A model generated the notes under the pieces. That model saw nothing but the letters and a program-made list of their open reading frames with translations. It was not told where the DNA came from and searched no databases. From NCBI GenBank assembly GCA_043740145.1, contig JAYUCX010000183.1, forward strand, positions 1 to 30,578: DNA of 30,578 bases, read 5' to 3'. Position numbers and translations under genes: made by a program. The stretch is from Gammaproteobacteria bacterium. GTDB lineage: Bacteria > Pseudomonadota > Gammaproteobacteria > SURF-13. The number at the start of each line of letters is the position of its first letter. The first letter of the stretch is position 1. Positions 12,339-29,186 of the stretch are shown in pieces.

Positions 12339-14288
12339 ATGAACCTCCCGCACGCCGTATCTCGCTCAGGGTTACTCTTGCTGCTCGCGTTGACCGTGAG
12401 CGCTTGCGGGACGCTGAGCATACCTTCGTCTAGCACGGCAAGGCCAGCGCCGGCCCCGGTGCGCAGCGACACGGCGCAACAGGCGCAAGAACTCGAAAAT
12501 CAGGGCGATTTTCTGGGTGCGGCGCGCGCCTATCAGGAGCTGGCCGATCAGGCCGCAGAACCGCAGCGTCAAGACTACATCTTACACGCCGCCGCCGCTT
12601 ATGTGCAGGCTGGCGACATCAAGCAGGCGCGCCTGCTGGTTGATAGCGTCGCTGTGGAAGGTTTGCCGGCCGAGCGGCTCACCCGCAGGCAGGTACTGGA
12701 TGCGCAGGTGGCGCTATCCGAGGGCGATCCGCAGCACGCCCTGAAGGCGCTCAACAGCGAGCCCCGGCCAGGCGCTCTCCCATCTCTGCAGGCCGAGGCA
12801 CACCTGCTGCGCGCGGAGAGCTATTCTCTGCTCGGCAACCACATTGAAACCGCGCGCGCACGCATAACCCTGGAGCCGCTGTTCACTGACCCTATCGCCA
12901 TCCAGGATAATCAGCGCGGCATCATACAGGCCCTGGCGATGATGTCCGATGAGGCCCTGCGCCAATTGGCGGCCGGGCCGCCGGAGGTGTTGAGCGGCTG
13001 GATGGAGCTCGTGACCATCGCCCGCGCCACAGGCAAGGACCCGGTTCAGTATAAGACCCAGGTCGTGGATTGGCGGCATCGTTACCGCCAGCACCCTGCG
13101 TCGGAAGAGACACTGCGCTATCTCGCTACCACGGCGGCTTCGTCTGCGCCCGGTCTAACTCCCGTTGAGCCTGCTCCGGGAGTAACGTCTACAACGGTCC
13201 CGCTCACTACTACGGTAGGGAGCCCGGCCCGGATTGCCTTATTACTACCCATCAGCGGTAGCCTTGCCGGCGCAGGCAATGCCGTACGTGAGGGCGTGCT
13301 CGCCGCCGCGCGCGCGCAGGCAGGCGGAGACAATCCTGCCGTCACGGTCTATGATGTTGGCGCGGCCAATGCCCAGGAACGCGCCACGAAGGTATTGGAG
13401 ATGTATCAACAGGCGTTGCAGGAGGGCGCCACTGCGGTGCTCGGCCCGCTCGACAAGGAGGGCGTCAAGTCCCTTTATAGCTTGGGCACGCTGCCCGTGC
13501 CCACCCTCGCCTTGAACTACGGCGATGAGAACGACGCCGCGCCCGTAAATCTCTATCAATTCGGCCTTGCCCCCGAAGACGAGGCCCGCCAAGCGGCGGA
13601 GCGCGCCTGGCTGGAGGGCCATAGCCAGGCCTTGGTGCTCACTCCCAGTGGTGAATGGGGCGACAGGATCGCCAATGCCTTCAGGGCACAACTTGAGCAG
13701 CGCGGTGGCATCGTCGTGGATCAGGAGAGTTACCCGGCGGAGGGCGTGGATTTCTCGACCCCAGTACGCAGACTGCTTAAATACTCCGACGGGGGCGAAA
13801 AGCGTAATAAAAAAATTCGCCCGCAGCGCCGCCGGGATGCCGATTTCATCTTCCTCGCGGCGCAGCCAAGACAAGCGCGTACGATCCGCCCCTTGTTACA
13901 ATTTTTTTACGCCTCAGAACTGCCGGTGTACGCAACCTCGCATACCTACAGCGGCAACCCGTCGCGGGTCGCCGACCAGGATCTCGAAGGTCTCATGTTT
14001 GCGGACATGCCCTGGGTGTTGACGGACAATACCCCTCAGCAGGTCTTGCGGGGCACGCTGGCCGGCCAGTCGCCCGCCGCCTTCGCGCAATACAAACGGC
14101 TCCATGCACTGGGCGTGGATGCGTATCATCTTTTGGCGCAGCTCGACCGTCTGCGCGGCGCACCCGAAGAGCGCTTTGAAGGCGAGACCGGCGGCCTGAC
14201 GCTGGACACCGCCAACCGCATCCACCGGCATCTGGTATGGGCGCGTTTTGTCAACGGCGTGCCGCAACCGCTCGAGGACGCGCGTTGA
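12339..14288 (+). CDS. lpoA: Penicillin-binding protein activator LpoA (LppC family lipoprotein)
   Basis: Lipobox VSAC, TPR-like N-domain, Pro/Thr linker, IALLLP.SG, GPLDK, ALNY, FGLAPEDEA, ALGVDAY; divergent from rsmI as in the conserved yra locus. Confidence 0.9.
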   Translation: MNLPHAVSRSGLLLLLALTVSACGTLSIPSSSTARPAPAPVRSDTAQQAQELENQGDFLGAARAYQELADQAAEPQRQDYILHAAAAYVQAGDIKQARLLVDSVAVEGLPAERLTRRQVLDAQVALSEGDPQHALKALNSEPRPGALPSLQAEAHLLRAESYSLLGNHIETARARITLEPLFTDPIAIQDNQRGIIQALAMMSDEALRQLAAGPPEVLSGWMELVTIARATGKDPVQYKTQVVDWRHRYRQHPASEETLRYLATTAASSAPGLTPVEPAPGVTSTTVPLTTTVGSPARIALLLPISGSLAGAGNAVREGVLAAARAQAGGDNPAVTVYDVGAANAQERATKVLEMYQQALQEGATAVLGPLDKEGVKSLYSLGTLPVPTLALNYGDENDAAPVNLYQFGLAPEDEARQAAERAWLEGHSQALVLTPSGEWGDRIANAFRAQLEQRGGIVVDQESYPAEGVDFSTPVRRLLKYSDGGEKRNKKIRPQRRRDADFIFLAAQPRQARTIRPLLQFFYASELPVYATSHTYSGNPSRVADQDLEGLMFADMPWVLTDNTPQQVLRGTLAGQSPAAFAQYKRLHALGVDAYHLLAQLDRLRGAPEERFEGETGGLTLDTANRIHRHLVWARFVNGVPQPLEDAR

Positions 14289-14656
14289 GCGAGGCCACCG
14301 CCAAACAATTGCGCGGACAACAGGCCGAAGATCTGGCTTGTCGCTATTTACTGGCGCAAGGCCTGCAATTGCTGGAACGAAATTACCGCTGCAAGCGCGG
14401 CGAGCTGGATCTCATCATGAAACACAAGGACAGCATCGTGTTTGTCGAGGTGCGTTACCGCAACACCCTGCGCTTCGGCGGCGGCATGGAGAGCGTGGAC
14501 AGGCACAAACAGTCCAGACTGATCGCCTGCGCGCAACACTATCTGCAATACCACAAGCTGGGCGCAACCATCCCCTGCCGCTTTGACGTAGTCGCCGTGC
14601 TAACCGCTGCGGGTGAGGATAAAGCGGAGTGGATAAGAGACGCCTTTCAGGCTTAA
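14285..14656 (+). CDS. yraN: YraN family (UPF0102) nuclease-like protein
   Basis: TTG start overlapping lpoA stop (TTGA); GQQAEDLA, LERNYRCKRGELDLIM, VFVEVRYR, CRFDVVA. Confidence 0.92.
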   Translation: MSEATAKQLRGQQAEDLACRYLLAQGLQLLERNYRCKRGELDLIMKHKDSIVFVEVRYRNTLRFGGGMESVDRHKQSRLIACAQHYLQYHKLGATIPCRFDVVAVLTAAGEDKAEWIRDAFQA

Positions 14657-14683: not shown

Positions 14684-15289
<606 letters not shown>

Positions 15290-15293
15290 ACTC

Positions 15294-15872
15294 ATGAACT
15301 CTAAATTTTCTTTACTAGTAGCAGTGGCGCTGTCGGCGGCCTTATTGCAGGGTTGCGCGGCAGTAGTGGTCGGCGCCGCCGCCACCGGCGTGGCGGTCGC
15401 GCATGACCGGCGCACCGCGGGCACCGTCGTGGATGATGAAACCATCGAAGTGAAGGCTGCCGGGGCGCTCAATGCGGACAAAGAGATCCGCGACCAGACC
15501 CATTTCAATGTCACCAGCTACAACAATGTCGTGCTGATGACCGGCGAGACGCCTACCCAGCCACTGGGTCAGCGCGCCTATCAAATCGTGAGCGGGCTCG
15601 ACAAGGTCAAAAAGGTGCATAACGAGACCGTCGTCGCGGCGCTCAGTTCGTTCGGCTCGCGCAGCAATGACGTCCTGCTGACCAGCAAGGTCAAGGCGCG
15701 CATGATCGCCACCAAGGGCTTTGATTCCACGCTGGTGAAGGTTGTGTCGGAGCGCGGGACTGTTTACCTGATGGGTCTGGTATACCGTCACGAGGGCGAC
15801 CTGGCGACGGCCATTACCCGCCAGACCGATGGCGTACAACGCGTCGTCAAGCTGTTTGAATATCTGGAGTAG
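15294..15872 (+). CDS. Dual BON domain lipoprotein (DolP/YraP family)
   Basis: Start at ATG 15294; lipobox LQGC; DRRTAGTVVDD, VTSYNNVVLMTGE, VSERGTVYLMGLV, GVQRVVKLFEY. Confidence 0.92.
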   Translation: MNSKFSLLVAVALSAALLQGCAAVVVGAAATGVAVAHDRRTAGTVVDDETIEVKAAGALNADKEIRDQTHFNVTSYNNVVLMTGETPTQPLGQRAYQIVSGLDKVKKVHNETVVAALSSFGSRSNDVLLTSKVKARMIATKGFDSTLVKVVSERGTVYLMGLVYRHEGDLATAITRQTDGVQRVVKLFEYLE

Positions 15873-15923
15873 AGCCGAATTTATTCGGCCGTTTTGCGAT
15901 ACTGCGAATAAATTCGCGCCTAC
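15869..15923. repeat. GTAG-type REP doublet in inverted orientation (REPIN); may act as bidirectional terminator
   Basis: GTAGagccgaatttattcggc (15869-15889) and, on the minus strand, GTAGgcgcgaatttattcgc (15923-15904). Each has an internal palindrome and the two share CGAATTTATTCG. Both GTAG feet contain the TAG stops of the convergent genes. Confidence 0.8.
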
Positions 15924-16321
15924 TTCACCAGTTTGAGCTTGGGCTTTCCGGGCTTGTCGGCGTTGGGTTTGGGAGGTGTGCCACCCTCCAGTTCATTAAA
16001 GACCATGCCCTGACCGTTTTCGCGGGCGTAGATCGCCAGCACGGCGGAGATCGGTATGCTGACGTGGGTGGCTGCACCGCCGAAGCGGGCGTTGAACTCG
16101 ATCAGATCATTGCCTATTTCCAGATTATGAGCGGCGGAAAGGCTGGTGTTGAGGATGATCTTGCCGTTCTGTACGTGTTTGGCAGGTACATTCACCTCCG
16201 GCCCGATCACGTTGACGAGCAGGTGAGGGGCAAGTCCATTGTCCACGATCCAAGTGTGGATCGCGCGGATCAGGTAGGGGCGGCTGGAGGTCATCTCCAT
16301 ATTGATAGGAGGGTTGTTCAT
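15920..16321 (-). CDS. sspB: ClpXP protease adaptor, stringent starvation protein B (start uncertain, 16333/16321/later)
   Basis: MTSSRPYLIRAIHTWIVDNG, FNARFGG, AIYARENGQGMVF, C-terminal KPKLKLVK ClpX-binding tail. Confidence 0.93.
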   Translation of the reverse strand: MNNPPINMEMTSSRPYLIRAIHTWIVDNGLAPHLLVNVIGPEVNVPAKHVQNGKIILNTSLSAAHNLEIGNDLIEFNARFGGAATHVSIPISAVLAIYARENGQGMVFNELEGGTPPKPNADKPGKPKLKLVK

Positions 16322-16372
16322 CGTCTTTACCAATAGCTAAACACTGTGGTGCTATTTTACACGACTTTCCGT

Positions 16373-16999
16373 TTAGGCTCGCATCTCCCGCTCGGCCTCC
16401 GTGAGGCTGGCCCGGAAGCCCTCGCGGGCGAACAGCCGCGCCGAATATTTGGCGATGTGCTTCGCCTGGGGCGGCAATTCGACCCCTAGATGCGGTAAGC
16501 GCCACAGGATCGGCCCGATAACGCAGTCCACCAGCGACAACTCATCGCTCATGAAGAAGGTCTTTTGCCCGAACAGCGGATCGCTGGCGGTCAGGCTGTC
16601 CCGCAGGGCCTTGCGGGCCTTACTGAGGCGGTGATTGTCCGGATTTTCCAGTTCCTCGACGGCGCTGTACCAATCCTGTTCGATACGGTACATCATGAGC
16701 CGCGTCCGCGCCCGTGACACCGGGTCCACCGGCATCAGCGGCGGATGCGGAAAGCGCTCATCCAGATATTCCATGATGATGAGCGAATTATAAAGCACCA
16801 GATCGCGGTCTACGAGGGTAGGCAAGGTATGGTAGGGGTTTAGATCTATCACGTCTTCAGGCAGGTGTTCGGGATCTACGTGGATAATGTCCACCGCGAT
16901 ATTCTTTTCGGCGAGCGCAAAGCGGGTGCGGTGGCTGAAGGGGCAAACCGGGCCGGAGTAGAGAGTCATGACCGATCTTCTATTGATAATTAGCGACAT
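16373..16999 (-). CDS. sspA: Stringent starvation protein A (GST-like RNAP-binding factor)
   Basis: LYS...CPFSHRTR, LNPYHTLPTLVDRDLVLY, YLDERFPHPPLMPVDP, PILWRL; AGGGAG RBS. Confidence 0.95.
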   Translation of the reverse strand: MSLIINRRSVMTLYSGPVCPFSHRTRFALAEKNIAVDIIHVDPEHLPEDVIDLNPYHTLPTLVDRDLVLYNSLIIMEYLDERFPHPPLMPVDPVSRARTRLMMYRIEQDWYSAVEELENPDNHRLSKARKALRDSLTASDPLFGQKTFFMSDELSLVDCVIGPILWRLPHLGVELPPQAKHIAKYSARLFAREGFRASLTEAEREMRA

Positions 17000-17098
17000 A
17001 AGATCTCCCTGGTATGTTTTGTGAAATAACTGTTTTACGGGCTTAAGTCATTGACTCTTTTGGGATAGCTGATGAATAGTTATGGCTACCCTGCCGCG

Positions 17099-17125
17099 AG
17101 TATACCTTAGATGACACGGTGTCAA
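17099..17125 (-). promoter_or_regulatory. Candidate sigma70 promoter for sspA-sspB
   Basis: Minus strand TTGACA (17125-17120), 15-nt spacer, TATACT (17104-17099). Boxes are near-consensus but the spacer is short. Confidence 0.45.
17112..17124. promoter_or_regulatory. Perfect palindrome TGACAC-G-GTGTCA, candidate transcription-factor operator
   Basis: 6-1-6 dyad read directly; overlaps the -35 and spacer of the candidate sspA promoter. Confidence 0.4.
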
Positions 17126-17165
17126 TGTAGTGAGAGCCATATTTTTGATGAGGCTTGTAATACTA

Positions 17166-17195
17166 TTGACATCACTCTTGGCGTTGATCTACGAT
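17166..17195 (+). promoter_or_regulatory. Candidate sigma70 promoter for the act operon
   Basis: TTGACA (17166-17171), 18-nt spacer, TACGAT (17190-17195); back-to-back with the sspA candidate promoter. Confidence 0.4.
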
Positions 17196-17561
17196 TTGAA
17201 ATTCGACAATGATCTACTCGTTTAAGGGAGCTTTGCTTTTGAGTATTGTGTAGGCTGAGTTGGGCGCCCACCCTGTCGCTCCCTAGTTGTGATGCGTGTT
17301 TTAAGGATGCGTTTTTTGCAAATGCCGACGCGGTAGCCGTAGTCGTCGAGGCATATTCTGCAAACAATTCCCCGGGTGAGTCACTTAAGCCGACATAATC
17401 GTTAAAGGTTAGGGCGTGCTATTGCCGCGCGCCTCGGGTTTTACGAGTTAGCAAGCCATCGTCGGCCTGTTTCCCGTGTGTTCGCTTGGTCCTAAGGGGC
17501 GTGAGAGGGTCAGCGGGCGTTTTGAAATGTAGCGTGTTTTCCAGACAGCGGAACTAACAAG

Positions 17562-18161
17562 ATGAATGACTTACTTCGGCGTTGGCTATTGACCTTCCTG
17601 TGTGTCGGCGGCTTCCTGATCGGGACGAGCACTGCCGCGTCGGAAGCCCCCAATATTAAATATCCTGTCCCCCCGCCGGGCGACTACAACGGTGACGTGG
17701 TCGAACAGCCCATCGAGTTCCCTCACGACATCCATACCAAGATCAACAAGATCAACTGCCTTTACTGCCACACCTACGGCCGCCGCAGCAAGGTGGCCGG
17801 CATCCCACCCACCAGTAAGTGCATGGGCTGCCACCGGGTGATCGCCACCGACAAGCCGCGCATCCAGAAACTCACCGAATATTGGGAAAAGCGCCAATCC
17901 ATCCCCTGGAAGAAGGTGCACGACGTGCCCGATTTCGTTCATTTCACCCACGAAAGGCACCTCAAGAAATTCATCTTCGATAACGAGGAGCTGGTGCAGA
18001 ATCTCTCCGTGGACACCGTGGCGCCGGTGTGTGCCGCTTGTCATGGCGACCTCAGGGAGATGACGGTGGCGCGCAAGGTAAAGCCGATGAGCATGGGCTG
18101 GTGTGTCGCGTGCCATGAAGCCAACGGCGGACCCGGCGACTGTTGGAAGTGTCATAAATAA
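17562..18161 (+). CDS. actA: Alternative complex III pentaheme cytochrome c subunit
   Basis: N-terminal hydrophobic anchor; five CxxCH motifs (CLYCH, CMGCH, CAACH, CVACH, CWKCH); QPIEFPH, IPWKKVHDVPDFVHFTH, MSMGWCVACH; first gene of the cluster. Confidence 0.9.
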   Translation: MNDLLRRWLLTFLCVGGFLIGTSTAASEAPNIKYPVPPPGDYNGDVVEQPIEFPHDIHTKINKINCLYCHTYGRRSKVAGIPPTSKCMGCHRVIATDKPRIQKLTEYWEKRQSIPWKKVHDVPDFVHFTHERHLKKFIFDNEELVQNLSVDTVAPVCAACHGDLREMTVARKVKPMSMGWCVACHEANGGPGDCWKCHK

Positions 18162-18199
18162 TCAGCCTGAAACCAGCAAACACGTACGGACGGTTACCT

Positions 18200-20398
18200 A
18201 TGAGTGGTAGTGAAATAAACCGCAGGGGATTTCTAAAATTAATGGGCTGGAGCGCAGCGGGTGCGGGGCTTGCTGGTTGCGATCTTCCCTCCACGGTGAC
18301 GCTGGAGCAGGGTAAGGAAACGGTGCTGTCCTACCTTTCCCCCGAGGAATACGTCATACCGGGCATAGGGGTGTGGTATGCCTCCACCTGCATGCAGTGC
18401 GCGGCCTTCTGTGGCATTCATGGCCGGGTGCGCGAGGGACACGCCCTGAAACTCGAAGGCAATCCCGATTCGCCGCTGAACCGCGGCAAGCTGTGCCAGA
18501 TGGGTCAGGCCGGTATACAGGGCCACTACAACCCGGACCGCATTACTCAGCCGCTGCTTCGTAAGGACGGCAAGCTCACCCCGATAGGCTGGGATGAAGC
18601 CTGGAACCTCATCGGTCAGAAAATCTCCAATGCGCCCGGCGAACGCTTCGCTTGGGTCACCGGCACGGTGAGCGGTCACCAAGCGGTGTTGCTTGCCGCC
18701 CATATCGAGGCCATGGGCTCTAAAAATCATTTTGCCGTCGAGGTGATCGGCCCGCACGTGGGCCGCGCCGTGAATCAGGACATGCTGGGCGAGGCGATGC
18801 CGCGCCTGGTTCTCGACAAGGCCAAGCTCATCCTCTCGTTGGGCGCCGATTTTCTGGGCACCTGGGTGTCGCCCACCCATTTCGCTACCGAGTACGCCAA
18901 GTTCCGTTCCGGCTCGCGCGGCATGCTCGTCCAGGTCGAACCGAAGATGACACTCACCGGCGGCAACGCCGATCTGTGGGTGCCCATCCGGCCGGGTACC
19001 GAAGGCGTGCTGGCACTCGCCATCGCTAACGTATTGATGAAGGGCGGTGCCAAGGTTCCCGAGGCCGCTATGGCCGCGGTATCGGCCTATGAGCCCGCCA
19101 AGGCGGCCGAGATCACCGGCATCTCCGCCGAGCGCATCGAAAAAATTGCCGCGCTGCTCAAAGAGCACAGCCCGAGTCTGGTGCTGGCCGGCGCGCCGGT
19201 GGAGGGCCATGCCCACGGCTATCAGGCCGCCGCCGCCGTGCAGTTGTTGAATATCATGCTGGGCAATGTCGGCCAAACCATCGTCTCGGCGGGTGGCTTC
19301 CCCTTCCCGCAACTGGCGGCGAAGAGCGGCAGCACGCGTGATCTCATCGCCTTTGCCGATGCCGCCAAGAATCAAAAGCTGGACGTTGCGTTTTTCTATG
19401 GCGCCAATCCCGTTTACAGCGCCCCGCAATTCCTGGCGCTCTCTGAGGCCCTGCAAAAGATTCCGTTCAAGGTCGCCTTCGCCCAGTTCCCCGACGAAAC
19501 CGCCGAGGCGGTCGATCTGGTCATCCCGCTGGCGTCGTATCTGGAAGATTGGGGCACGCACGTGGCGGCCTACCAGCCGGAGCAGGCCAGCATCACGGTG
19601 CAGCAACCGCTGATGGAGCGCATGTACAACGACACCATCGGCTTCGGCGATGCGCTGCTCAAACTCCTGAAGCTGCGCAAGTCCGAACAGTATGCCGCCT
19701 GGGAAGACTACTACGCCTACCTGCGCAACGCCGTGGCCACGCTGCCCGCCGAGTACAAGGCCGGGGCCGCGAACGACAACGTATTCTGGAATCAGACCCT
19801 GCAAAAGGGCCTGCTGAAGGTGGCCGCCGCCGCGCAAGAGCTGAAGCCGCAGGTATCCGAGATCAAACTGCCCGACGCGCAGCCCAATGAAGGCTATCCG
19901 CTATACCTGGTGCCCTCCGCCCAATTGGGACTGTGGGACGGCCGGCATGCCAACCTGCCTTGGCTGCAAGAGGCGCCCGATCAGATCAGTAAGGTAGTGT
20001 GGGATTCATGGGCGGAGATTCATCCCGCCACGGCGGCGAAGCTCGGCATCAAAGAAGACGATATCATTGAGATCGCCTCGGAGCACGGCGCGATCAAGGT
20101 CAAGGCCTATCTGTTCAAGGGCGTGCACCCGGACGTGGTCGCCGTGCCGATGGGCCAGGGCCACGAGGCCTACGGCCGCTATGCCAAGAACCGGGGTGTG
20201 AACGTGCTGAAGATCCTCGATCCTGTCACCGAAGCCAAGACCGGCGAGCTTGCGCTGTACGGCACGCGCGTTAAGCTGGCCAACACGGGCAAAAATGAAC
20301 CTCTGGTCATCGAGGGCCGCGGCAACACCAGTCAACGCGGCCGCAAGCTGGTGGCGACCGTTTCCGCAGATCAGTTCCGCAAGACGGAAGGAGCTTAA
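18200..20398 (+). CDS. actB1: Alternative complex III subunit B1 (molybdopterin-oxidoreductase catalytic-subunit homologue), Tat lipoprotein
   Basis: NRRGFLK twin-arginine signal ending in lipobox LAGC27; CX2CX3CX27C motif; KLEGNP; ILSLGADFLGTW; LPWLQEAPD; C-terminal EIHP...DVVAVPMGQGH domain. Confidence 0.88.
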   Translation: MSGSEINRRGFLKLMGWSAAGAGLAGCDLPSTVTLEQGKETVLSYLSPEEYVIPGIGVWYASTCMQCAAFCGIHGRVREGHALKLEGNPDSPLNRGKLCQMGQAGIQGHYNPDRITQPLLRKDGKLTPIGWDEAWNLIGQKISNAPGERFAWVTGTVSGHQAVLLAAHIEAMGSKNHFAVEVIGPHVGRAVNQDMLGEAMPRLVLDKAKLILSLGADFLGTWVSPTHFATEYAKFRSGSRGMLVQVEPKMTLTGGNADLWVPIRPGTEGVLALAIANVLMKGGAKVPEAAMAAVSAYEPAKAAEITGISAERIEKIAALLKEHSPSLVLAGAPVEGHAHGYQAAAAVQLLNIMLGNVGQTIVSAGGFPFPQLAAKSGSTRDLIAFADAAKNQKLDVAFFYGANPVYSAPQFLALSEALQKIPFKVAFAQFPDETAEAVDLVIPLASYLEDWGTHVAAYQPEQASITVQQPLMERMYNDTIGFGDALLKLLKLRKSEQYAAWEDYYAYLRNAVATLPAEYKAGAANDNVFWNQTLQKGLLKVAAAAQELKPQVSEIKLPDAQPNEGYPLYLVPSAQLGLWDGRHANLPWLQEAPDQISKVVWDSWAEIHPATAAKLGIKEDDIIEIASEHGAIKVKAYLFKGVHPDVVAVPMGQGHEAYGRYAKNRGVNVLKILDPVTEAKTGELALYGTRVKLANTGKNEPLVIEGRGNTSQRGRKLVATVSADQFRKTEGA

Positions 20399-20401
20399 AC
20401 C

Positions 20402-21256
20402 ATGTCGCTACAGAATCTGATAGACAACTGGTCGCAATACCGCAAGGGCATCGAAGAGGGCGGCTTTCAGCACTACGAGCACCGCTGGGGCATGGCGATA
20501 GACCTCAACGCCTGCATCGGCTGCAACGCCTGTTCGACCGCCTGTTATGCGGAAAACAACCTGGCCGTGGTCGGGCCGGAGCGTTTTGCGCAGGGCCACT
20601 TCATGCACTGGTTGCGCGTCGAGCGTTACTGGGATCAGCCCGACAAGGAGTTTCCGGAGCAGGGTGCGAGCTTCCTGCCCATGATGTGTCAGCAATGCGG
20701 CGCCGCGCCGTGCGAGCCGGTATGTCCCGTGGTGGCCACTTATCACACGCCGGACGGGCTGAACGCGCAGGTCTATAACCGCTGCATCGGCTCGCGCTAC
20801 TGCAACAACAACTGTCCCTATCGCGTGCGCTATTTCAATTTCTGGTCGTACTACGAGACCTCCTGGCCGGAGCCGCTCAACATGCAACTCAACCCCGACC
20901 TCACGGTGCGCGACAAGGGCGTGATGGAAAAGTGCACCTTCTGCGTGCAGCGCATCCGTACCGTCAAGGACAAGGCCAAGATGGAGAACCGCAAGGTCAA
21001 GGACGGCGAGTTCACCACCGCCTGCGCACAGGCCTGTCCCACCAATGCCATCCACTTCGGCGATCTGATGGACCCTGAGAGTCAGGTGACGAAGCTGTGG
21101 GCCACACATCAGGTCTCGCGGGTGGACGAGCAGGGCCGTCCGCGCCACGAGCAGGACAAACAGAATCCCGATCTGCGCGGTTACCGCGTGCTGGAAGAAC
21201 TCAACACGGACCCGTCGGTGATGTATCTCGAACGGGTACGCGAGACCTTAGCGTAA
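20402..21256 (+). CDS. actB2: Alternative complex III subunit B2, four-cluster Fe-S protein (NrfC/PsrB-like)
   Basis: CIGCNACSTAC, CQQCGAAPCEPVCP, CIGSRYCNNNCP (one Cys replaced by Ser, as expected for the [3Fe-4S] site), CTFC...CAQACP; RDKGVMEKC. Confidence 0.9.
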   Translation: MSLQNLIDNWSQYRKGIEEGGFQHYEHRWGMAIDLNACIGCNACSTACYAENNLAVVGPERFAQGHFMHWLRVERYWDQPDKEFPEQGASFLPMMCQQCGAAPCEPVCPVVATYHTPDGLNAQVYNRCIGSRYCNNNCPYRVRYFNFWSYYETSWPEPLNMQLNPDLTVRDKGVMEKCTFCVQRIRTVKDKAKMENRKVKDGEFTTACAQACPTNAIHFGDLMDPESQVTKLWATHQVSRVDEQGRPRHEQDKQNPDLRGYRVLEELNTDPSVMYLERVRETLA

Positions 21257-21281
21257 CGCCATCGTGAAGGTAGAGGCTGGT

Positions 21282-22703
21282 ATGAAAGATATAGCGATAC
21301 ACTCCCAAGAAAGCGATATCCGCGAAGATCTGCCGTGGAAACAGATCAATACGGATATCCTGCGTTCCCTGGACAACCCGCGCCGGGGCTATTGGTATTC
21401 CATCATCGTCTGCCTGGTGCTGCTCGCCATCGGCTTCACCGCCGAGATGATTCAGTATCAGACCGGCATGGGCATGTCCAAGAACCACCCGCACATGTGG
21501 AATCTGTACATCGCCACCTTCATCTTCTGGATCGGCATGAGCCACTCCGGCACGCTGCTCTCGGCGATTCTGCACATCGTACACGCCGACTGGCGCAAAC
21601 CGATTTACCGCTTCGCCGAGGCGATGACCACCTTCTCGCTGATGACCGCGCTCTTGTTTCCGGTCATACACTTAGGAAGGCTTTGGAATTTCTACTGGGT
21701 TGTCCCTTATATTCCATCGCGCGGCACCTGGCCGAATTTCCGCTCCCCGCTGTCGTGGGACGGCTTTGCGATCATGACGTATCTCACCTCTTCAGCGCTG
21801 TTTTTGTACATCGGCATGTTGCCGGATTTGGCGATCGCGCGCGACAACACCACCGGCTGGCGCAAGCAGCTCTACAGCACACTGTCGCTCGGCTGGTGTG
21901 GCAACGACCGGCAGTGGCGCGTATTCCGCAAGGCCTACATGCTGATGGCGATTTTTTTGATTCCGCTGGCCGTCTCGGTGCACTCCATCGTGTCGTCCGA
22001 CTTCGCCATGTCCATCAATCCCGGCTGGCATGTGACCACCTTCCCGCCTTATTTCGTGGCCGGCGCGCTGTACTCCGGCTGCGCGGCGATCATCACGCTG
22101 TTCATCCTGCTGCGCTATTACTTCCGCTGGGAAGAGTACATGACGCTGCCTATCCTGGAGAAGATCTGCAAGCTCACTTTTGCCATCGCCATGATGTGGA
22201 CGTATTTGAATCTGGTCGAGTTCTCCTCGGTGTGGTACGGCCATGACGTGTATGGCAAAGAGGTGTTGTGGGGCAAGATGACGGGGGCTTATGCGCCGGC
22301 CTTCTGGAGCATGATGTTCTTCGGCTCGGTGCTGCCGTTCACGCTCGCCTTCCGCAAGCTGCGCCGCCACATCCCCACCATGATGGCGGTGTCCATCGTG
22401 CTCAACGTCGGCATGTGGCTGGAGCGTTGGATGATCATCTCGCCCACGTTGTCCCAGTCGTTCTATCCCTGGTCGTGGGATGTGATGTGGCCGACCCTCA
22501 CCTCCTGGGCTATCGTGCTGGGCAGCTTCGGCTGGTTCGGCCTGCTGTTCCTGGTGTTCGTGAAGATCTTCCCGTCGGTCTCCATGTATGAGGTCAAGGA
22601 AATGGTCTACCACCGCAAGCTCGCCACTGAAAAGGCGGCAGCGCCCGTCGGCGGTATGGCGCCCGCCTACGGCGCACACATGAAGAAGGAGGACGCGGTA
22701 TGA
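21282..22703 (+). CDS. actC: Alternative complex III subunit C, NrfD-family quinol-binding membrane protein
   Basis: ATG 21282 after GAGG (alternative GTG 21264); about 10 TM helices; FWIGMSHSGTLLSAIL, RFAEAMT, HLGR, NFRSPLSWD, VHSIVSSDFA, FPPYFVAGALYSG, GMWLERW. Confidence 0.92.
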   Translation: MKDIAIHSQESDIREDLPWKQINTDILRSLDNPRRGYWYSIIVCLVLLAIGFTAEMIQYQTGMGMSKNHPHMWNLYIATFIFWIGMSHSGTLLSAILHIVHADWRKPIYRFAEAMTTFSLMTALLFPVIHLGRLWNFYWVVPYIPSRGTWPNFRSPLSWDGFAIMTYLTSSALFLYIGMLPDLAIARDNTTGWRKQLYSTLSLGWCGNDRQWRVFRKAYMLMAIFLIPLAVSVHSIVSSDFAMSINPGWHVTTFPPYFVAGALYSGCAAIITLFILLRYYFRWEEYMTLPILEKICKLTFAIAMMWTYLNLVEFSSVWYGHDVYGKEVLWGKMTGAYAPAFWSMMFFGSVLPFTLAFRKLRRHIPTMMAVSIVLNVGMWLERWMIISPTLSQSFYPWSWDVMWPTLTSWAIVLGSFGWFGLLFLVFVKIFPSVSMYEVKEMVYHRKLATEKAAAPVGGMAPAYGAHMKKEDAV

Positions 22704-23230
22704 AAAAGACTCACCGCCTACTCGGTCTGTTCAGCAATTTTGATGAGGCCACCAAGGCCATTTATGACATCCGCGCCAACAAGGTGAGCGGCGTTTCCGT
22801 CAAAGACGTGACCCTGATCTCACCTATCGAGCACCCGGAGGTCGAAGAGGCGCTCGGCGATCGCGGCGTGCACGTGCAGTTCTTCACGCTGTTCGGGGGA
22901 TTGTTCGGCCTGATCGGCAGTTGGGTGTGGATTTCTGCGGCGCAGGCCACCTTTCTGGTTCAGCCGCAGGGCGGCAAGCCGGTGGTGACCCTGGTCACCA
23001 ACTTCGTGTTGAATTACGAGATGATGATTCTGGGCGGTGTGTTATTCACCCTGATAGGTCTTCTGGTCGGCGCGCGTTTGCCCTCGCGCCCCGGTTCGCT
23101 TTACAGCGAAAAAATCAGTTTGGACCAGATCGGCATCCTGCTGGAGGTTAATGAACCCAACCTGGCGCCACTGAAGTCGCTGTTCCACCAACACAATGTA
23201 GTCGAAATACGCGAAGAGATCATTCGATGA
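22700..23230 (+). CDS. actD: Alternative complex III subunit D (DUF3341-like)
   Basis: ATGA overlap with actC; two central TM helices, GGKP motif, YEMMILGG; position between actC and actE. Confidence 0.85.
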   Translation: MKKTHRLLGLFSNFDEATKAIYDIRANKVSGVSVKDVTLISPIEHPEVEEALGDRGVHVQFFTLFGGLFGLIGSWVWISAAQATFLVQPQGGKPVVTLVTNFVLNYEMMILGGVLFTLIGLLVGARLPSRPGSLYSEKISLDQIGILLEVNEPNLAPLKSLFHQHNVVEIREEIIR

Positions 23231-23784
23231 AAGCCCTGCGCCTATTCCTTGTCTTGCCGTTGCTCGCTCCGGTGCTTGTCTATGCCTGGCCGTGGTCGCA
23301 GGACATGATGAATCAACCCAGCATCAAGCCCCAAGAACCTGAACGTAATGGGCAGTTGTCGCCCTTCCCTCATCGCTCGGTTCCCGTGCAAGGCATCCCG
23401 ACCCAAACGGCCAGCCGTGAAGAGGCTAAGGATCTGACCAATCCATTCCCTCCGGACGAAGCTTCGATCAAAAAGGGGCGTGTGCTGTTTCGCATTATCT
23501 GCGCCGCCTGCCATGGGCAGACCGGCAAGGCCGATTCCCCTGTGACCGACAAGATCGGCGCGATTGACCTCACCTCGGATTATGCACAGAAGGATCTCAC
23601 CGAAGGCTGGATCTACGGCACCATAACGCATGGCGGCGCGGTGATGCCTCCTTATGGCGTCCCTGCGGGTGGTGTGGGTTCCAATGATTTGTCACCGGAA
23701 GAGCGTTGGCATGTCGTCAACTATGTGCGCCACGCCTTGACCAAAGAGCCGACCGCTGCCGCTCCACAAGCAGCGACTAAATAA
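23227..23784 (+). CDS. actE: Alternative complex III subunit E, monoheme cytochrome c
   Basis: Signal peptide; DMMNQPSIKPQE, SVP; single CAACH; distal VMPPY Met; ERWHVVNYVR. Confidence 0.87.
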   Translation: MKALRLFLVLPLLAPVLVYAWPWSQDMMNQPSIKPQEPERNGQLSPFPHRSVPVQGIPTQTASREEAKDLTNPFPPDEASIKKGRVLFRIICAACHGQTGKADSPVTDKIGAIDLTSDYAQKDLTEGWIYGTITHGGAVMPPYGVPAGGVGSNDLSPEERWHVVNYVRHALTKEPTAAAPQAATK

Positions 23785-23806
23785 CAGGTTAGAGGAGTAT
23801 GATTTA

Positions 23807-24874
23807 ATGGAAAACTTGGGCTTCGGCAGCTGGTCGGTGCTGACCACGAATTTTTTAATCATCCTCTACATGGCGCTGGGGACGATCACCCTGTCGGCGC
23901 TGCTGCACATGGCCAACGCCAAGTGGCGCTTCCAGATACGCAACCTGGTGGCAAGCCTCGCGGTGTTGTTCCCGGTGGCGTTCGTGCTGCTGCTGGTTCT
24001 GCTCGCCAACGGCGAGCATACCTTCCAATGGCTGGCCCATGCCAAAGAGGGCGAGCATCACCTGCCGGGTTGGCACAACTACACCTTCCTGGTGGCGCGC
24101 GAGATCATCGGATTTATCCTCGTGGTGACGCTCTACGGGCTGTTTATTAAATACCAGCACCGCAGCGAGGCGGACCCGTCGCCCGCGATCGCGCGCACCT
24201 TCCGCAATATTACCCTGTTGATCCCCTTTGCCTATGTTCCTTACGCGACCATGGTGGCTTGGGATTTCGAAATGACCCAGATGCCCGGCTGGCACAGCGC
24301 GAGTTATGGCGCCTACCATTTCGTCAGCAATTTCCACGCCTCGCTGGGGTTCTTGGCGGTATTGTTGTTTGTGCTGAGTCGCTCCGGGAAACTCGTCAAG
24401 CCGCTGCCGGAGTTCGTGTTCAATTACCTCGCGCAGTTTATGTTCGCCTTCACTATTTTGTGGACCTATCTGTTCTTTACGCAATTCCTCATCATGTGGT
24501 ACGGACGTTTCCCCGAAGAGACCATCCGTTTCTTCAATATGATGTACGGCGGGCCGATGCGGCCTAACATGGAGATCGGCGGTTACTCGCCGCTGTGGTG
24601 GACGTTCTTTACTCTCAAGTTCATCGTTCCGTTCACGACCTTCTTGTTCACCGCCAATCGGCATAATCCGGTGGTCATCATCACCGTTGGCCTCGGCATC
24701 TTAATAGGCACCTGGATCGAGCGCTATACCTGGATATCCGGTTCTGTGGACCCGAAGCTCTATCACTTCCCCATGACCTCGATCTTCGACATCGTGGTGA
24801 CGCTGGTGGTTGCGGCCGTGGCGTTTTTCGCGGTGCGCTGGTCCCTGACCCGTTCCGGCTTGGTAAAGCCGTAA
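23807..24874 (+). CDS. actF: Alternative complex III subunit F, second NrfD-like membrane subunit
   Basis: About 9-10 TM helices; WDFEM...PGWHSASYG, LWTYLFFTQFLIMWYG.FPEET; lacks the MSHSG quinol-site histidine of ActC; last gene of the cluster. Confidence 0.87.
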   Translation: MENLGFGSWSVLTTNFLIILYMALGTITLSALLHMANAKWRFQIRNLVASLAVLFPVAFVLLLVLLANGEHTFQWLAHAKEGEHHLPGWHNYTFLVAREIIGFILVVTLYGLFIKYQHRSEADPSPAIARTFRNITLLIPFAYVPYATMVAWDFEMTQMPGWHSASYGAYHFVSNFHASLGFLAVLLFVLSRSGKLVKPLPEFVFNYLAQFMFAFTILWTYLFFTQFLIMWYGRFPEETIRFFNMMYGGPMRPNMEIGGYSPLWWTFFTLKFIVPFTTFLFTANRHNPVVIITVGLGILIGTWIERYTWISGSVDPKLYHFPMTSIFDIVVTLVVAAVAFFAVRWSLTRSGLVKP

Positions 24875-24947
24875 GCTCCTCTAGTGCCCCGTCTTTACAT
24901 GGCGTGGTACCATCCTCACAGCCGATTATCAGGTTAGGGGATTCCTC

Positions 24948-26123
24948 ATGCGCATCCGTAATCTTCTATCGTTTCTGATCAAGTCCATCATCACCGGACT
25001 CGCCGCCGCGTTTATCATCGTGGCCTTATACCCCGGTCTGCTCAAGAAGGGTGATACGGTCGTGGAGGTTAAGGAAAATATCCGCCCGGCGGCTGCAAGC
25101 TCGACTTCGGGACAATCCGCATTCGCGCCCAGTTCCTACGCAAGGGGAGTGGGTCAGGCCGCGCCCTCGGTAGTCAATATCTTTACGACCAAGGTCGTCA
25201 CCCAGCGCCCGCATCCGTTTCTGGATGACCCCTCCATGCAACGCTTTTTCGGCGACAACCCCCAGTTCGCCCCGCGGCAACGGCTCGAGAGCAGCCTCGG
25301 ATCGGGAGTCATCATCAGTGACAAAGGCTACATCCTCACCAATAATCATGTGATTGAAGGCGCCGACGAAATCCAGATCGCCCTCAGCGACGGGCGCAGC
25401 GCCCAAGCGCAGGTAGTGGGTACCGATCTCGAGACCGATGTGGCGGTATTAAAGATAGAAATGGGCAAGCTGCCCAGCATCGTGATCGGCCAGTCGGATG
25501 CCCTGCAAGTAGGCGACGTGGTACTCGCCATCGGCAATCCCTTCGGCGTGGGACAGACCGTCACGCACGGCATCGTCAGCGCCACGGGGCGTAACCATCT
25601 CGGCATCAACACCTTTGAAAATTTCATCCAGACCGACGCCGCGATCAATCCGGGCAACTCGGGCGGCGCGCTCGTCAACACCGAAGGTGAGTTGATCGGC
25701 ATCAATACCGCGATCTTCTCGCGCACCGGCGGCTCGCAAGGGATAGGCTTCGCCATCCCCTTAAGCCTCGCCCGCGGCGTGATGGAACAGATCATCGAAC
25801 ACGGCCGCGCCATCCGCGGCTGGCTCGGGGTAGAGGTACAGGGCATTACGCCACAACTCGCGGAATCCTTCGGCCTCGGCGCCGACGCCAAGGGTGTCAT
25901 CATCGCAGGCGTATTGTCCGACAGCCCAGCCGATCAAGCCGGAATCAAACCTGGCGACATCGTCACCCAGATCAACGACAAACCCATCACCGAACCCGCG
26001 GAACTCCTAAATACCATCGCACAGGCTGCTCCCGGCGAGAGCGTCAAGATCGTCGGCCTGCGTAACGGCAGCGCCTTCGATCTCCAAGCTAAGGTGGCCG
26101 AGCGCCCGACGCGCAGCCCGTAG
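24948..26123 (+). CDS. HtrA-family serine protease with one PDZ domain (DegS/DegQ/AlgW-like)
   Basis: N-terminal TM anchor; triad TNNHV, TDVAV, GNSGG; VGDVVLAIGNPFG; single C-terminal PDZ (RGWLGV, SPADQAGIKPGD). Confidence 0.93.
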   Translation: MRIRNLLSFLIKSIITGLAAAFIIVALYPGLLKKGDTVVEVKENIRPAAASSTSGQSAFAPSSYARGVGQAAPSVVNIFTTKVVTQRPHPFLDDPSMQRFFGDNPQFAPRQRLESSLGSGVIISDKGYILTNNHVIEGADEIQIALSDGRSAQAQVVGTDLETDVAVLKIEMGKLPSIVIGQSDALQVGDVVLAIGNPFGVGQTVTHGIVSATGRNHLGINTFENFIQTDAAINPGNSGGALVNTEGELIGINTAIFSRTGGSQGIGFAIPLSLARGVMEQIIEHGRAIRGWLGVEVQGITPQLAESFGLGADAKGVIIAGVLSDSPADQAGIKPGDIVTQINDKPITEPAELLNTIAQAAPGESVKIVGLRNGSAFDLQAKVAERPTRSP

Positions 26124-26152
26124 CTCGTATAGTAAAAAGCAAAGCTGCCTGT

Positions 26153-26576
26153 TTTACTGCATGGTTATTGGACTATAGACCGTAACCCGCAGCATCGAGA
26201 CGGCGGAAGAAAAAACAAAATCAATCGAGTCTGACACTACCCTATTGATTTTGCTACTATTTCCTATATCGTTTGCGTAAAGCAAGGAGATGCAAAATGA
26301 GTAAACCGGAAAAGCCACTTGATCCAGAGAGAGTGGCATGTGAAGTATGCCTCAAGGAGATTCCGATATCCGAGGCAAAGAGCGCGGAAGCAGTCGACTA
26401 TGTGCAGTACTTTTGTGGTTTAGAGTGCTACGCCAAATGGAAGAAGCAAGGGGGGAAAACAGGTGAGAAAAAGGTATAAGCGCCGCGTCTAATCAGTCAA
26501 AATCAATCGAGTCTGACTCTGAGCTTTCCATCCTAATGCTTTACTATTATGGTTATTGGGCTATAGACGTAACCCG
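26153..26576. repeat. Nested direct repeats A-B-[gene]-B-A around the DUF3330-like gene
   Basis: A: tttactgcatggttattggactatagaccgtaacccg (26153-26189) vs tttactattatggttattgggctatagacgtaacccg (26540-26576). B: perfect 20-mer CAAAATCAATCGAGTCTGAC (26216-26235 and 26498-26517). Confidence 0.85.
26297..26479 (+). CDS. Small Cys-rich metal-binding protein, DUF3330/TRASH-like
   Basis: ATG 26297 after AAGGAG; CEVCLKEIP...DYVQYFCGLECY matches the pattern recalled for DUF3330 proteins. Confidence 0.7.
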   Translation: MSKPEKPLDPERVACEVCLKEIPISEAKSAEAVDYVQYFCGLECYAKWKKQGGKTGEKKV

Positions 26577-26700
26577 TTTGTGAGCTGAGCCGCCGCCGGG
26601 ATAAATAAGGAAACGCGAAATGTCAAAATACAAGACGCGACCCTTTCTTCGACCATTTCACCACGCGACCCGTTGCAAAATTTCATTGCCACCGCTCATC

Positions 26701-27375
26701 TCATTTCTGTAAGAGAACTTGCGCGATTTCAGGAGCGCGTTTTCTGTAATCCATTTCATTCACCCATTCAATAGAGTTTTGCTCCATGGACTGACAGACC
26801 TCTCGCTCTGAAATTTTTAAAGTCGATGCAGCATCCTTCATGTCTTGAGCGATCATCTTTTCGGTAGAGGGCGACACAAATTTGTAAAACTTGTCGAGGT
26901 CATATGGAATCCCATGCTCCTTGAAGTCTAGAATTTGGATTCTTTCGGCAGATATGAACAACTGATGGTGTTTTTGTTCATAGGCATTGACAAAGGATTT
27001 AATGGGGGTACCGAGCGAAGCGCAATAATCTGCGCGGGTTCGTGTGTTCAAAAAATATGCACCAAAGAAAAAATTTGATGCGGCAGTTAATTTCTGTTTT
27101 TCTGTGTTGGAGGTATTTAGTGTGGTGATTGCGTTTTTGTATGACTTTTCTACGAGAACCTCAGTTGTGCTTTTTTCTGTTGTAGCCTGGCTCTGAGCTG
27201 CTTTGATTTCCTGCTCAGTGTTCGCAGCACCACGCTCACTTGTCTCTTGCATTGATCTTGATTGGAACCACTGGCTCTTGAGTTCTTTGACTGCAAGAAA
27301 TGAAATAACAAAGACAACAACAAATATCAGTTTCCCGAAAGCAGTTTTTGATATTTCTTTTATCTTGTCGAGCAT
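26701..27375 (-). CDS. Hypothetical membrane-anchored protein, probable integron cassette gene
   Basis: 224 aa, one N-terminal TM helix, AT-rich; GGGGAG RBS; starts about 50 nt after the attC crossover G|TTAGCG. No family recognised. Confidence 0.75.
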   Translation of the reverse strand: MLDKIKEISKTAFGKLIFVVVFVISFLAVKELKSQWFQSRSMQETSERGAANTEQEIKAAQSQATTEKSTTEVLVEKSYKNAITTLNTSNTEKQKLTAASNFFFGAYFLNTRTRADYCASLGTPIKSFVNAYEQKHHQLFISAERIQILDFKEHGIPYDLDKFYKFVSPSTEKMIAQDMKDAASTLKISEREVCQSMEQNSIEWVNEMDYRKRAPEIAQVLLQK

Positions 27376-27419
27376 GTTAACTCCCCAAAAAGTCTCGGAT
27401 TGTCACGGCCTTTCAGGGC

Positions 27420-27488
27420 CGCTAACGGCCGATCTCACCTGCGAGTGGCGGGTCAGCGCCAGGAGTCAGGTGGAGCGAGTTGTTATGC
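27420..27488 (-). mobile_element. Integron attC recombination site
   Basis: Minus strand: R'' GCATAAC (contains the gene's TAA stop), 5-nt spacer, L'' GCTCCACCTG pairing with L' CAGGTGAG with one extra-helical base, central TGGCG/CGCCA stem, R' GTTAGCG; 69 bp. Confidence 0.88.
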
Positions 27489-27990
27489 ATACTTTGCATA
27501 GTGCCACCATCTTAATGAGATTTTTTCATCCACAACATCTCTCGCCAGAACGAAGAGACTAGGTTCGCCGTTGTGTTCTGCTACAAGTCTTTCTGCCTTC
27601 AGGAGATTTCTGTCGTATTCAGTCTTTAGATTGTAAGAGTCATTGCCCATCTTTGCCTGAGCTGCGTTGTCCAGACCGCGATTAATATCTTGGACTTGCT
27701 CGAAGAACCGCCCCAGTATCAGCACTTCTTCCTCGGCTACCGCTCCATCCGCTAGCAGTACAGGGTACGAAACCTGATAAGCAATGACCGGCAACCGATA
27801 GAGAGGCGACATGACATTGTCGTTAAGCAACGTCTCGGCCTTTTCTTTGCACAGCATCATTTCTGCACGAAGAGCGCACCAGTGTGTTTTTAGCCTCCGT
27901 TTCCGATTGAACCATGGAGGCAACAGCCCAAGCAGGAAGCCAAAAATAGCGAACGCCAATTCAGTCAACGCTCAATCCTCGTAGGCATAA
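27426..27990 (-). mobile_element. Complete integron gene cassette (565 bp)
   Basis: Begins G|TTATGC (27991-27985) just upstream of the RBS and start codon and ends at the G of the attC R' (27426). The leading GTTATGC is the exact complement of the R'' GCATAAC, as required for the circular cassette. Confidence 0.85.
27483..27968 (-). CDS. Hypothetical protein (cassette gene)
   Basis: 161 aa, TTG start after GAGGA; hydrophobic N-terminus followed by basic RKRRLK; stop codon lies inside the attC R'' box. Confidence 0.75.
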   Translation of the reverse strand: MTELAFAIFGFLLGLLPPWFNRKRRLKTHWCALRAEMMLCKEKAETLLNDNVMSPLYRLPVIAYQVSYPVLLADGAVAEEEVLILGRFFEQVQDINRGLDNAAQAKMGNDSYNLKTEYDRNLLKAERLVAEHNGEPSLFVLARDVVDEKISLRWWHYAKYA

Positions 27991-28013
27991 CTAGGATCGA
28001 AATCAGCGAAATC

Positions 28014-28087
28014 AGGGTCAAGTCTCCCATATTGCATGAATCATCTCAATGATCTATTTTGAGACCTCCTGGTCAGACTCGATTAAT
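28014..28087. repeat. Further copies of the island's short repeat family
   Basis: gggtcaagtct at about 28015-28025; gtcagactcgattaat (28072-28087) is an inverted copy of repeat B with one mismatch. Confidence 0.65.
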
Positions 28088-28159
28088 CGTTTACCAGCCG
28101 CTAATAAGTCGAGTATGATTCGATTATTCGTTCCGAAGAGGTAAATTATTTGTTAGAGG

Positions 28160-28576
28160 CTATTTAGTTTTCAGCAGGTCCTTGAGATTCGTAAAGGGAC
28201 TATAAGTGGGCGAGCCCTCTGTCGGCCTGACGTCGGTTGCCCCGGCAATATAGTCGCCATAACGCGAATGCTCGTTATCGTGGCAATAAATGCACAGGTT
28301 TTCCCAATTGCTGCCGTCTAGTGGGTTGTTGTCGTGGTTATGGTCTTTGTGGTGCACGGTAAGCAGGTGCAGGTTTTCGCGCGTGAACTCACGTCCACAC
28401 TTGCTACACACCCAAGGATGCATCTTTAAGGACAGCTCCCGATAACCCTTATTGCGCTCATCTTGTTCTTTACGCGCCTTGGCCACCAGGGCGTCGAGCC
28501 TGGCAGTGCCCGCCGGGGCGCTGCTATCTTGTTTTTGCTTGTTCACATCTATTGTCCGAGGGTTACCCTTAGCCAT
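28160..28576 (-). CDS. yajD: YajD family HNH nuclease
   Basis: GYRELSLKMHPWVCSKCGREF...LTVHHKDHNHDNNPLDGSNWENLCIYCHDNEHSR; GGAGG RBS. Confidence 0.85.
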   Translation of the reverse strand: MAKGNPRTIDVNKQKQDSSAPAGTARLDALVAKARKEQDERNKGYRELSLKMHPWVCSKCGREFTRENLHLLTVHHKDHNHDNNPLDGSNWENLCIYCHDNEHSRYGDYIAGATDVRPTEGSPTYSPFTNLKDLLKTK

Positions 28577-28655
28577 TATGTCCTCCCCGACCTCAAGGTC
28601 AGAGCTCTTTAATAGAGGTCTTTAATCACGCTGGAACGACGGGTTGTGGGCAGCA

Positions 28656-29107: not shown

Positions 29108-29125
29108 AGGGTTCTCCTGCTTTCA

Positions 29126-29154
29126 TTTATAACCTGCCGCAAACTGCAATGCAA
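29126..29154 (-). promoter_or_regulatory. Candidate sigma70 promoter for hicB-hicA
   Basis: Minus strand TTGCAT (29154-29149), 17-nt spacer, TATAAA (29131-29126), just upstream of the AGGAG RBS. Confidence 0.35.
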
Positions 29155-29186
29155 TGTCTCTTACTGCCGAACTAGAAATACGGCTG

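Follow-up and report, generated by a model that had tools for sequence, protein, structure and literature searches.

Alternative Complex III at the chromosomal address of the cytochrome bc1 complex in an uncultured order of Gammaproteobacteria

Introduction

How does one core respiratory complex come to be replaced by another at the same place on a chromosome? The question is raised by a stretch of DNA of 30,578 nucleotides, hereafter the window, which is contig JAYUCX010000183.1 (C183) of a gammaproteobacterial metagenome-assembled genome (MAG; GCA_043740145.1). The window carries an operon for an Alternative Complex III (ACIII), actA to actF, beside sspA, a place held in many other Gammaproteobacteria by petABC, the operon of the cytochrome bc1 complex. 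ACIII is a known substitute for bc1, and the takeover of one complex by the other within a lineage is rarely visible. A preliminary description of the window had proposed that bc1 was displaced in situ. The MAG comprises 1.33 Mb in 190 contigs, is 81% complete and has a GC content of 58.3%. Its order in GTDB consists of one family (f1) with 7 genera and 20 species, all members of which are MAGs. It is probably SURF-13, since one member is the MAG SURF_13 and a lineage Gammaproteobacteria; SURF-13; SURF-13 is listed in PMC12613898. As an ACIII the complex is ordinary; what is of interest is the history of its locus, and the loci of related families suggest that ACIII was first added next to petABC, which was lost later.

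Identity of the operon

The act genes lie on the forward strand. The first, actA (17562-18161), encodes a pentahaem cytochrome c with five CxxCH motifs (residues 66, 87, 157, 181 and 194), a signal peptide and matches to multihaem cytochrome families of Pfam. ActB is split over two genes. The molybdopterin-oxidoreductase-like half is encoded by actB1 (18200-20398; PF00384, PF01568, PF04879); its product carries the twin-arginine translocation (Tat) motif RRGFLK and matches the N-terminal halves of the ActB chains 8k9e_B, 6f0k_B, 6lod_B and 6btm_B with E-values of 3e-34 to 2e-43. The iron-sulfur half is encoded by actB2 (20402-21256), matches 4Fe-4S dicluster families of Pfam and is 81-99% identical among the members of the family. 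The product of actC (21264-22703; PF03916) is the NrfD-like membrane subunit that binds quinol in solved ACIII, with full-length matches to 8k9e_C, 6f0k_C, 6lod_C and 6btm_C (E 1e-90 to 1e-101). It is followed by actD (22700-23230; PF11821, E 1.4e-24, full length), by actE (23227-23784; PF13442/PF00034), which encodes a monohaem cytochrome c with one CxxCH motif and a signal peptide, and by actF (23807-24874), which encodes a second NrfD-like membrane subunit. ActF has no Pfam match; it matches the ActF structure chains 6f0k_F (3e-25), 6btm_F, 6lod_F and 8k9e_F and is 22-25% identical to ActC. As judged from sequence, the seven genes encode an intact canonical ACIII with a split ActB. An identity as Qrc (QrcABCD) was ruled out, the QrcA model scoring 74.5 bits against a cut-off of 180 and ActD, ActE and ActF being present.

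The act genes have a GC content of 56-62%, close to that of the genome, and a GC content at third codon positions (GC3) of 0.65-0.84, compared with 0.67-0.75 in the flanks. They are native in composition, without a trace of foreign origin in this respect. Within the family the Act proteins are more conserved than the flanks, ActC being 79-98% identical, as against 49-57% for LpoA, the product of a flanking gene.

Position of the operon

On the left the operon is bordered by two genes of the reverse strand, sspA (16373-16999), which encodes the glutathione S-transferase (GST)-like stringent starvation protein A with GST_N/GST_C Pfam matches, and sspB (15920-16333; PF04386, E 1.9e-32). On the right, 73 bp 3' of actF and on the same strand, lies a gene for a DegS/AlgW-like HtrA protease (24948-26123, forward strand), hereafter degS, and beyond it tatC (29187-30089; PF00902) and tatB (30073-30477; PF02416), both on the reverse strand. 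The protease has a Trypsin_2 domain and one PDZ domain and scores 418 bits with TIGR02037 and 328 bits with the DegS model.

This arrangement is constant in the order. In the other loci of the family that hold both genes, sspA and actA are adjacent (11 of 11); actF is followed directly by degS in 14 of 14, and tatB-tatC lie beyond degS in all 14 that reach that far. The gene order is identical in all loci recovered, which come from all 7 genera. The sspA-actA junction is also bridged by contigs of independent public sequencing runs, e.g. record 26 of run X6 (16746-19173) and record 2 of run X1; the runs were examined as contigs, none of the listed holders is recorded as RNA, and one run (X3), labelled RNA-Seq, is probably DNA. 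Since the adjacencies recur in the family loci and independent contigs bridge the junction, the gene order is no accident of assembly.

Of 20 other families of the class, 16 have sspA directly after petABC, as the preliminary description had stated for this part of the chromosome, and in 6 of the 20 a gene for a DegS-like protease lies divergently beside petA. The whole flank, rsmI/lpoA-yraN-gmhA-BON/sspB-sspA-petCBA/degS, is present in outgroups (e.g. loci L043, L052 and L057). The order is thus sspA, act, degS throughout the family of the window and sspA, pet, degS in the pet-bearing families: the act operon occupies the interval between degS and sspA that petABC holds elsewhere, on the opposite strand. 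The orientation of degS is kept, and the inversion is limited to the act operon. ACIII holds the address of bc1, and both the position and the inverted orientation proposed earlier are borne out.

The left flank is conserved as well. It consists of lpoA (12339-14288; PF04348), yraN (14237-14656; PF02021), a gene for a gmhA-like SIS protein (14696-15289; PF13580) and one for a BON-domain protein (15273-15872; PF04972), all on the forward strand, with rsmI (11427-12284, reverse strand; PF00590 and PF23016, RsmI_C), which encodes a 16S rRNA 2'-O-methyltransferase, at the outer end. The lpoA-yraN-gmhA-BON block adjoins sspB in family f1 and adjoins sspB-sspA-petCBA in L043, L045, L052, L056 and L057, and rsmI is found at the same place in the loci of the family and in pet-bearing outgroups. 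Pfam scans name each gene of the earlier list, barring two. What had been listed as degQ/S is indeed a protease gene, of the DegS/AlgW-like and not the DegQ type, with a single PDZ domain, and of the listed tatCBA genes tatC and tatB were found, while tatA is not within the window and would fall past its end.

Junctions of the operon

The divergent intergenic region between sspA and actA (17000-17561) is 562 bp long with a GC content of about 47%; across the family its length is 450-740 bp. A sigma-70-like promoter, TTGACA-18-TACGAT (10 of 12 consensus positions), is predicted on the act strand (+) at 17166-17195. When 12 spacers of the family are aligned, the TTGACA and TATACT blocks are kept and the remainder diverges fast. 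The latter block, AGTATA(G/C)C, which reads TATACT on the sspA strand, is kept in 9 of 12 genomes and 4 of 5 genera. The suggestion that sspA has its own promoter is therefore supported as far as an upstream region with a conserved TATACT box is concerned; matches to a consensus fall short of proof. FNR-type boxes were found in none of the 12 spacers. At the other end the distance from actF to degS ranges from 73 to 876 bp across the family, and transcription may read through from actF into degS. Inverted repeats that could mark the inversion were sought at the operon borders and none was found; all 18 pairs detected lie inside genes.

Absence of bc1 from the order

Neither a gene nor a relic of PetA, PetB or PetC is present in the window, and a tblastn search of the whole MAG with seven Pet sets gave no match at E<=1e-3. 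When the same seven PetA/B/C sets were run against the window at E<=10 only noise was returned, none of it in either junction region. The families PF00033 (cytochrome b) and PF02167 (cytochrome c1) have no match in the MAG. Cytochrome b is likewise absent from all 20 genomes of the order, nine of which are at least 90% complete and several 98-100%. The same search finds it in 20 of 21 other families of the set of relatives and, across the class, in 314 of the 400 genomes sampled (this tally includes one unpublished genome, G063, on which no specific claim rests). ActD is present in 16 of the order's 20 genomes, including that of the window; the remaining four are 56-88% complete. No quinol:cytochrome c oxidoreductase other than ACIII was found in the order.

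That an intact petABC escaped detection elsewhere in these fragmented MAGs is extremely improbable. All members of the order are MAGs, and that of the window is incomplete and in many contigs, which leaves some room for such an oversight; against it stand the absence of cytochrome b from 20 species, nine of them with genomes at least 90% complete, the success of the same search in other families, and the empty tblastn search with classic Pet proteins. The preliminary description had named two findings that would speak against displacement. One of them, a petABC merely moved elsewhere, fails because no cytochrome b is found in any of the 20 genomes; the other, vertical inheritance of ACIII, is partly in line with the evidence set out below.

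Respiratory chain around ACIII

A single haem-copper oxidase gene is present in the MAG; it is of a distant ccoN type and has a ccoO-like neighbour. Five near-complete members of the order have exactly one full-length haem-copper subunit I each, of the ccoN-ccoO-ccoP-like type, and a bd oxidase is found in only one of the five. In the congener G002 ccoN is followed downstream by FixO-like and then FixP-like (FixP_N) genes (L310, G002:C17:322000-341000). The ccoN of the order is divergent (258 bits, cut-off 583). Within 11 kb at L310 there are also two short open reading frames (~175 aa) whose matches are confined to the last third of COX1, a cytochrome c gene and a thioredoxin-like gene.

By homology, and given that no other quinol route to the sole oxidase was found, the complex of the window would be active as a quinol:cytochrome c oxidoreductase. 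Quinol would be oxidized at the NrfD-like ActC. The electrons would be relayed by the iron-sulfur clusters of ActB2 and then by the five haems of ActA until they reach the monohaem ActE, which would deliver them to a c-type carrier or directly to the terminal oxidase; such a stepwise path through the Act subunits is suggested by analogy. Gene content and the solved homologues point to a single visible route between quinol and oxygen, which would run from ACIII, via a c-type carrier or ActE, to the cbb3-type oxidase, and ACIII probably feeds this one oxidase. An uncultured order of small-genome soil and sediment bacteria thus appears to respire through ACIII and one cbb3-type oxidase.

A different role is conceivable, in which the complex is an ACIII by composition but no simple stand-in for bc1 and may run mainly in reverse, from periplasmic donors to the quinone pool. 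Such a role has been proposed for electroautotrophs and iron oxidizers with ACIII: the Tenderiales and neutrophilic iron oxidizers have both ACIII and bc1 (bioRxiv 10.1101/2022.05.06.490989; PMC5566968), for which separate forward and reverse roles were suggested in the former paper, and most of the related families with ACIII also keep a second, divergent bc1. In the order of the window, however, bc1 was not found, and four of the five near-complete genomes yielded no quinol oxidase either; a single cytochrome c oxidase, of the cbb3 type, is present. Without bc1 and, in these four, without a quinol oxidase, electrons of the quinone pool could reach oxygen only if ACIII worked in the forward direction. 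A mainly reverse role is therefore considered very unlikely.

ACIII in related families

A search of 400 genomes of the class found the same type of ACIII in another 29 genomes, which belong to 15 families (ActC 58-77% identical); even the nearest ActC from outside the order is only 76-77% identical. Several forms of the locus are represented. Nine families have act divergently beside degS, with actA next to degS and tatBC farther out. Three have a classic petABC and then sspAB after act, all on one strand (L129, L137 and L138). One family has act followed directly by sspAB, in the orientation of pet (L133 and L142; the form is also seen in the MAGs L074, L076, L079 and L080), and in one other act lies elsewhere and the classic degS/petABC-sspAB locus is intact (L144 and L211). 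Families f182 and f193 lack cytochrome b, like the order.

In families f32, f35, f112, f182 and f193 none of pet, act and degS is found upstream of sspA-sspB; a gene for a TerB/DnaJ-domain protein or metabolic genes take their place (L212-L216), which indicates a break of the old locus between act and sspA in these lineages. In four of these five (f35, f112, f182 and f193) sspA and secA share a contig, 19-31 kb apart.

The cytochrome b of seven ACIII families belongs to a second, divergent petABC that lies away from sspA. Compared with the classic proteins its products are 50-55% (PetB), 33-40% (PetA) and 26-32% (PetC) identical, and the divergent PetB forms a separate clade with a starred support of 99. 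The divergent loci are L203-L210, from genomes G412, G058, G135, G314, G072, G163, G092 and G354; in most of the seven families the classic petABC beside sspA is gone. The bc1 of Tenderiales was reported to have an unusual cytochrome c1 (bioRxiv 10.1101/2022.05.06.490989), and the divergent petABC is probably this bc1. Many related families thus swapped the classic bc1 for ACIII and a second, divergent bc1, which bears on Tenderiales-like electroautotrophs.

ACIII of this type has also crossed class boundaries. Three alphaproteobacterial MAGs labelled Rhodospirillaceae/Thalassospiraceae (L075, L077 and L085) carry actA-F directly upstream of petA-petB, and in the Act tree the alphaproteobacterial Act proteins nest within group 2 of the gammaproteobacterial ones, so that act has been transferred between the classes. 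One other family of the class has a distant type of ACIII (ActC 45-46% identical; ActD 134 bits) together with a classic petBC-sspAB (L040, which is G025:C102, and L058), so that ACIII entered the class more than once.

Phylogeny

The concatenated Act proteins of the family form one clade with a starred support of 100, and the branching inside it agrees with that of RpoB; the rpoB gene of the window's MAG was not assembled and its congener G002 stands in for it. Among the other families, f35 with f193 and f85 with f140 are sister pairs in the Act tree as well as in the marker trees, while f49 and f169 group in the marker trees and in the Act tree only fall within the same weakly supported clade. 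The congruent pairs argue for a mostly vertical descent of act among the ACIII families.

A tree of four markers (RpoB, RpoC, SecA and LepA; 4,276 columns) places the order and all ACIII families except f73 in one supported group (98/99, starred), together with ten families that have bc1 only. The branching inside this group is a radiation with short branches. A clade that joined the order to f32, f35, f112, f182 and f193 in a first RpoB tree (support 98) collapsed in the corrected, more careful RpoB tree, and a tree of the flanking genes (rsmI to sspA) was set aside on account of much missing data, fast evolution and lack of resolution. A comparison of Act and species trees, as the preliminary description had recommended, thus yields a single Act clade with concordant inner branching, and a species tree too poorly resolved to settle the history of the locus.

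History of the locus

The ACIII state of the order is ancient and no recent swap, because the arrangement is common to all 7 genera, GC3 is native and the Act proteins form one clade. The history favoured here, with fair but limited confidence, is that ACIII was inserted next to pet and that pet was then deleted and act inverted in the stem of the order. The ACIII operon would first have settled between degS and petA in the ancestor of a radiation of related families, giving a layout with tatBC, then degS, then act, petABC and sspAB on one strand. In the stem of the order petABC would have been deleted and the act operon alone inverted, leaving sspA with its own promoter region and placing degS downstream of actF. 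The layout with act between degS and petABC is the simplest common ancestor of the forms seen; the order of events and a vertical descent of act into the order are inferred. The tandem act-petABC-sspAB form, the act-sspAB form and the native composition fit addition followed by loss of pet better than a swap in one step.

Several points weigh against this history. The full ancestral layout is on no single contig and is pieced together from halves, and the junctions have neither inverted repeats nor pet relics. The sister group of the order is not resolved, and its nearest neighbour in the four-marker tree (89/99, not starred) is f158, a bc1-only family with a classic pet beside sspB. The Act tree places the order outside the two groups of other families, not inside them. 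An Act clade of the order and only the kin suggested by RpoB is rejected by the approximately unbiased (AU) test (p 1e-5); one of the order and all of group 2 is not (AU p 0.50). Because the species tree is poorly resolved and the order is so placed in the Act tree, act can be taken as no more than probably present in its direct ancestor. The stepwise route also takes two events, a deletion and an inversion, where direct replacement takes one.

Some of these points favour a displacement in one step, in which a stem with the classic degS/petABC-sspAB locus and no ACIII gained act horizontally, and act replaced petABC in a single insertion-deletion in the opposite orientation. The bc1-only neighbour, an Act clade that is not nested in the Act diversity of any related family and the single event all agree with it; the flanks match those of pet-only families exactly on both sides, and this type of ACIII has crossed a class boundary at least once, as the alphaproteobacterial MAGs in gammaproteobacterial group 2 demonstrate. 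On the other hand, such a displacement would make it a coincidence that related families have this very type of ACIII next to degS/tatBC or pet/sspAB, and it leaves aside that tandem and act-sspAB forms exist (the five loci L129, L137, L138, L133 and L142). It also has no compositional trace of foreign origin to point to and no identifiable donor, given how distant the closest outside ActC is. Displacement in one step is considered unlikely. Addition beside petABC followed by its loss remains the preferred history, and of the proposal that bc1 was displaced in situ the shared address, the inversion and the lack of bc1 in the order stand; a direct swap in one event is not supported in that form, since the state is ancient and native and apparent intermediates exist in relatives.

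A further reading is that the interval between degS and sspA by tatABC is a complex III slot, maintained by selection for whichever quinol:cytochrome c oxidoreductase a lineage uses. The interval is seen occupied by bc1 alone, by ACIII and bc1 in tandem, and by ACIII alone in either orientation. The Rieske protein of bc1 is Tat-dependent and a Tat motif is seen in ActB1, so that a need of both complexes for Tat export is a possible reason; envelope quality control or co-regulation with the neighbouring genes is another. If this held, the replacement of one respiratory complex by an unrelated one at the same address, with intermediates still extant, would reflect a rule instead of the accident of a single insertion, but a slot of this kind is decidedly unlikely.

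The extant forms make up a series at one locus, from degS/petABC-sspAB through act-petABC-sspAB and act-sspAB to the inverted act between sspA and degS without bc1. They offer a concrete and testable route for the replacement of a core respiratory complex, i.e. addition of the new complex next to the old one and later deletion of the latter.

Other features of the window

A low-GC island (26124-29186) splits the degS-tatC junction and has no part in the ACIII story. Its GC content is 41-53%, compared with 58% for the genome. It contains two open reading frames without a Pfam match, orf224 (26701-27375; 224 aa) and orf161 (27483-27968; 161 aa), and a gene for an HNH endonuclease (28160-28576; PF01844). 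In the congener G002 the counterpart of the island is the HNH gene only (96% identical); other members of the family have nothing at this site or different inserts (3.9 kb in G007).

The gene moaA (10411-11412), for molybdenum cofactor synthesis, adjoins rsmI and lies a few kb from actB1. Its nearness to actB1 is probably coincidental; the ActB of solved ACIII is not known to bind a molybdenum cofactor.

Comparison with known systems

The complex has the same subunit set, ActA to ActF, as the ACIII of Rhodothermus marinus (6F0K), Flavobacterium johnsoniae (6BTM) and Roseiflexus castenholzii (6LOD). Unlike in these, ActB is split into the products of two genes, no oxidase genes are adjacent and ActE has a plain signal peptide. 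The solved complexes partner caa3/aa3 oxidases, whereas the likely partner here is a divergent cbb3-type oxidase. Act clusters of this kind are found in Tenderiales, in iron oxidizers and in related uncultured Gammaproteobacteria; unlike the Tenderiales and the iron oxidizers, which have both complexes, the order has ACIII alone, at the classic pet address. A description of act at the pet/sspA address was not found in the literature searched. Compared with the classic petABC-sspA-sspB/BON-gmhA-yraN-lpoA/rsmI locus the flanks are identical on both sides, including the DegS-like gene, but seven act genes, unrelated to pet and on the opposite strand, stand where the three pet genes would be. The locus resembles a non-orthologous gene displacement in situ, a concept known from work on operon evolution, in that an unrelated, equivalent gene set sits at the ancestral position within the same flanks and the displaced genes are absent, as judged from MAGs. 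It differs from a simple case of this kind in that a whole multi-subunit respiratory complex is concerned, and in that the tandem forms suggest addition followed by loss.

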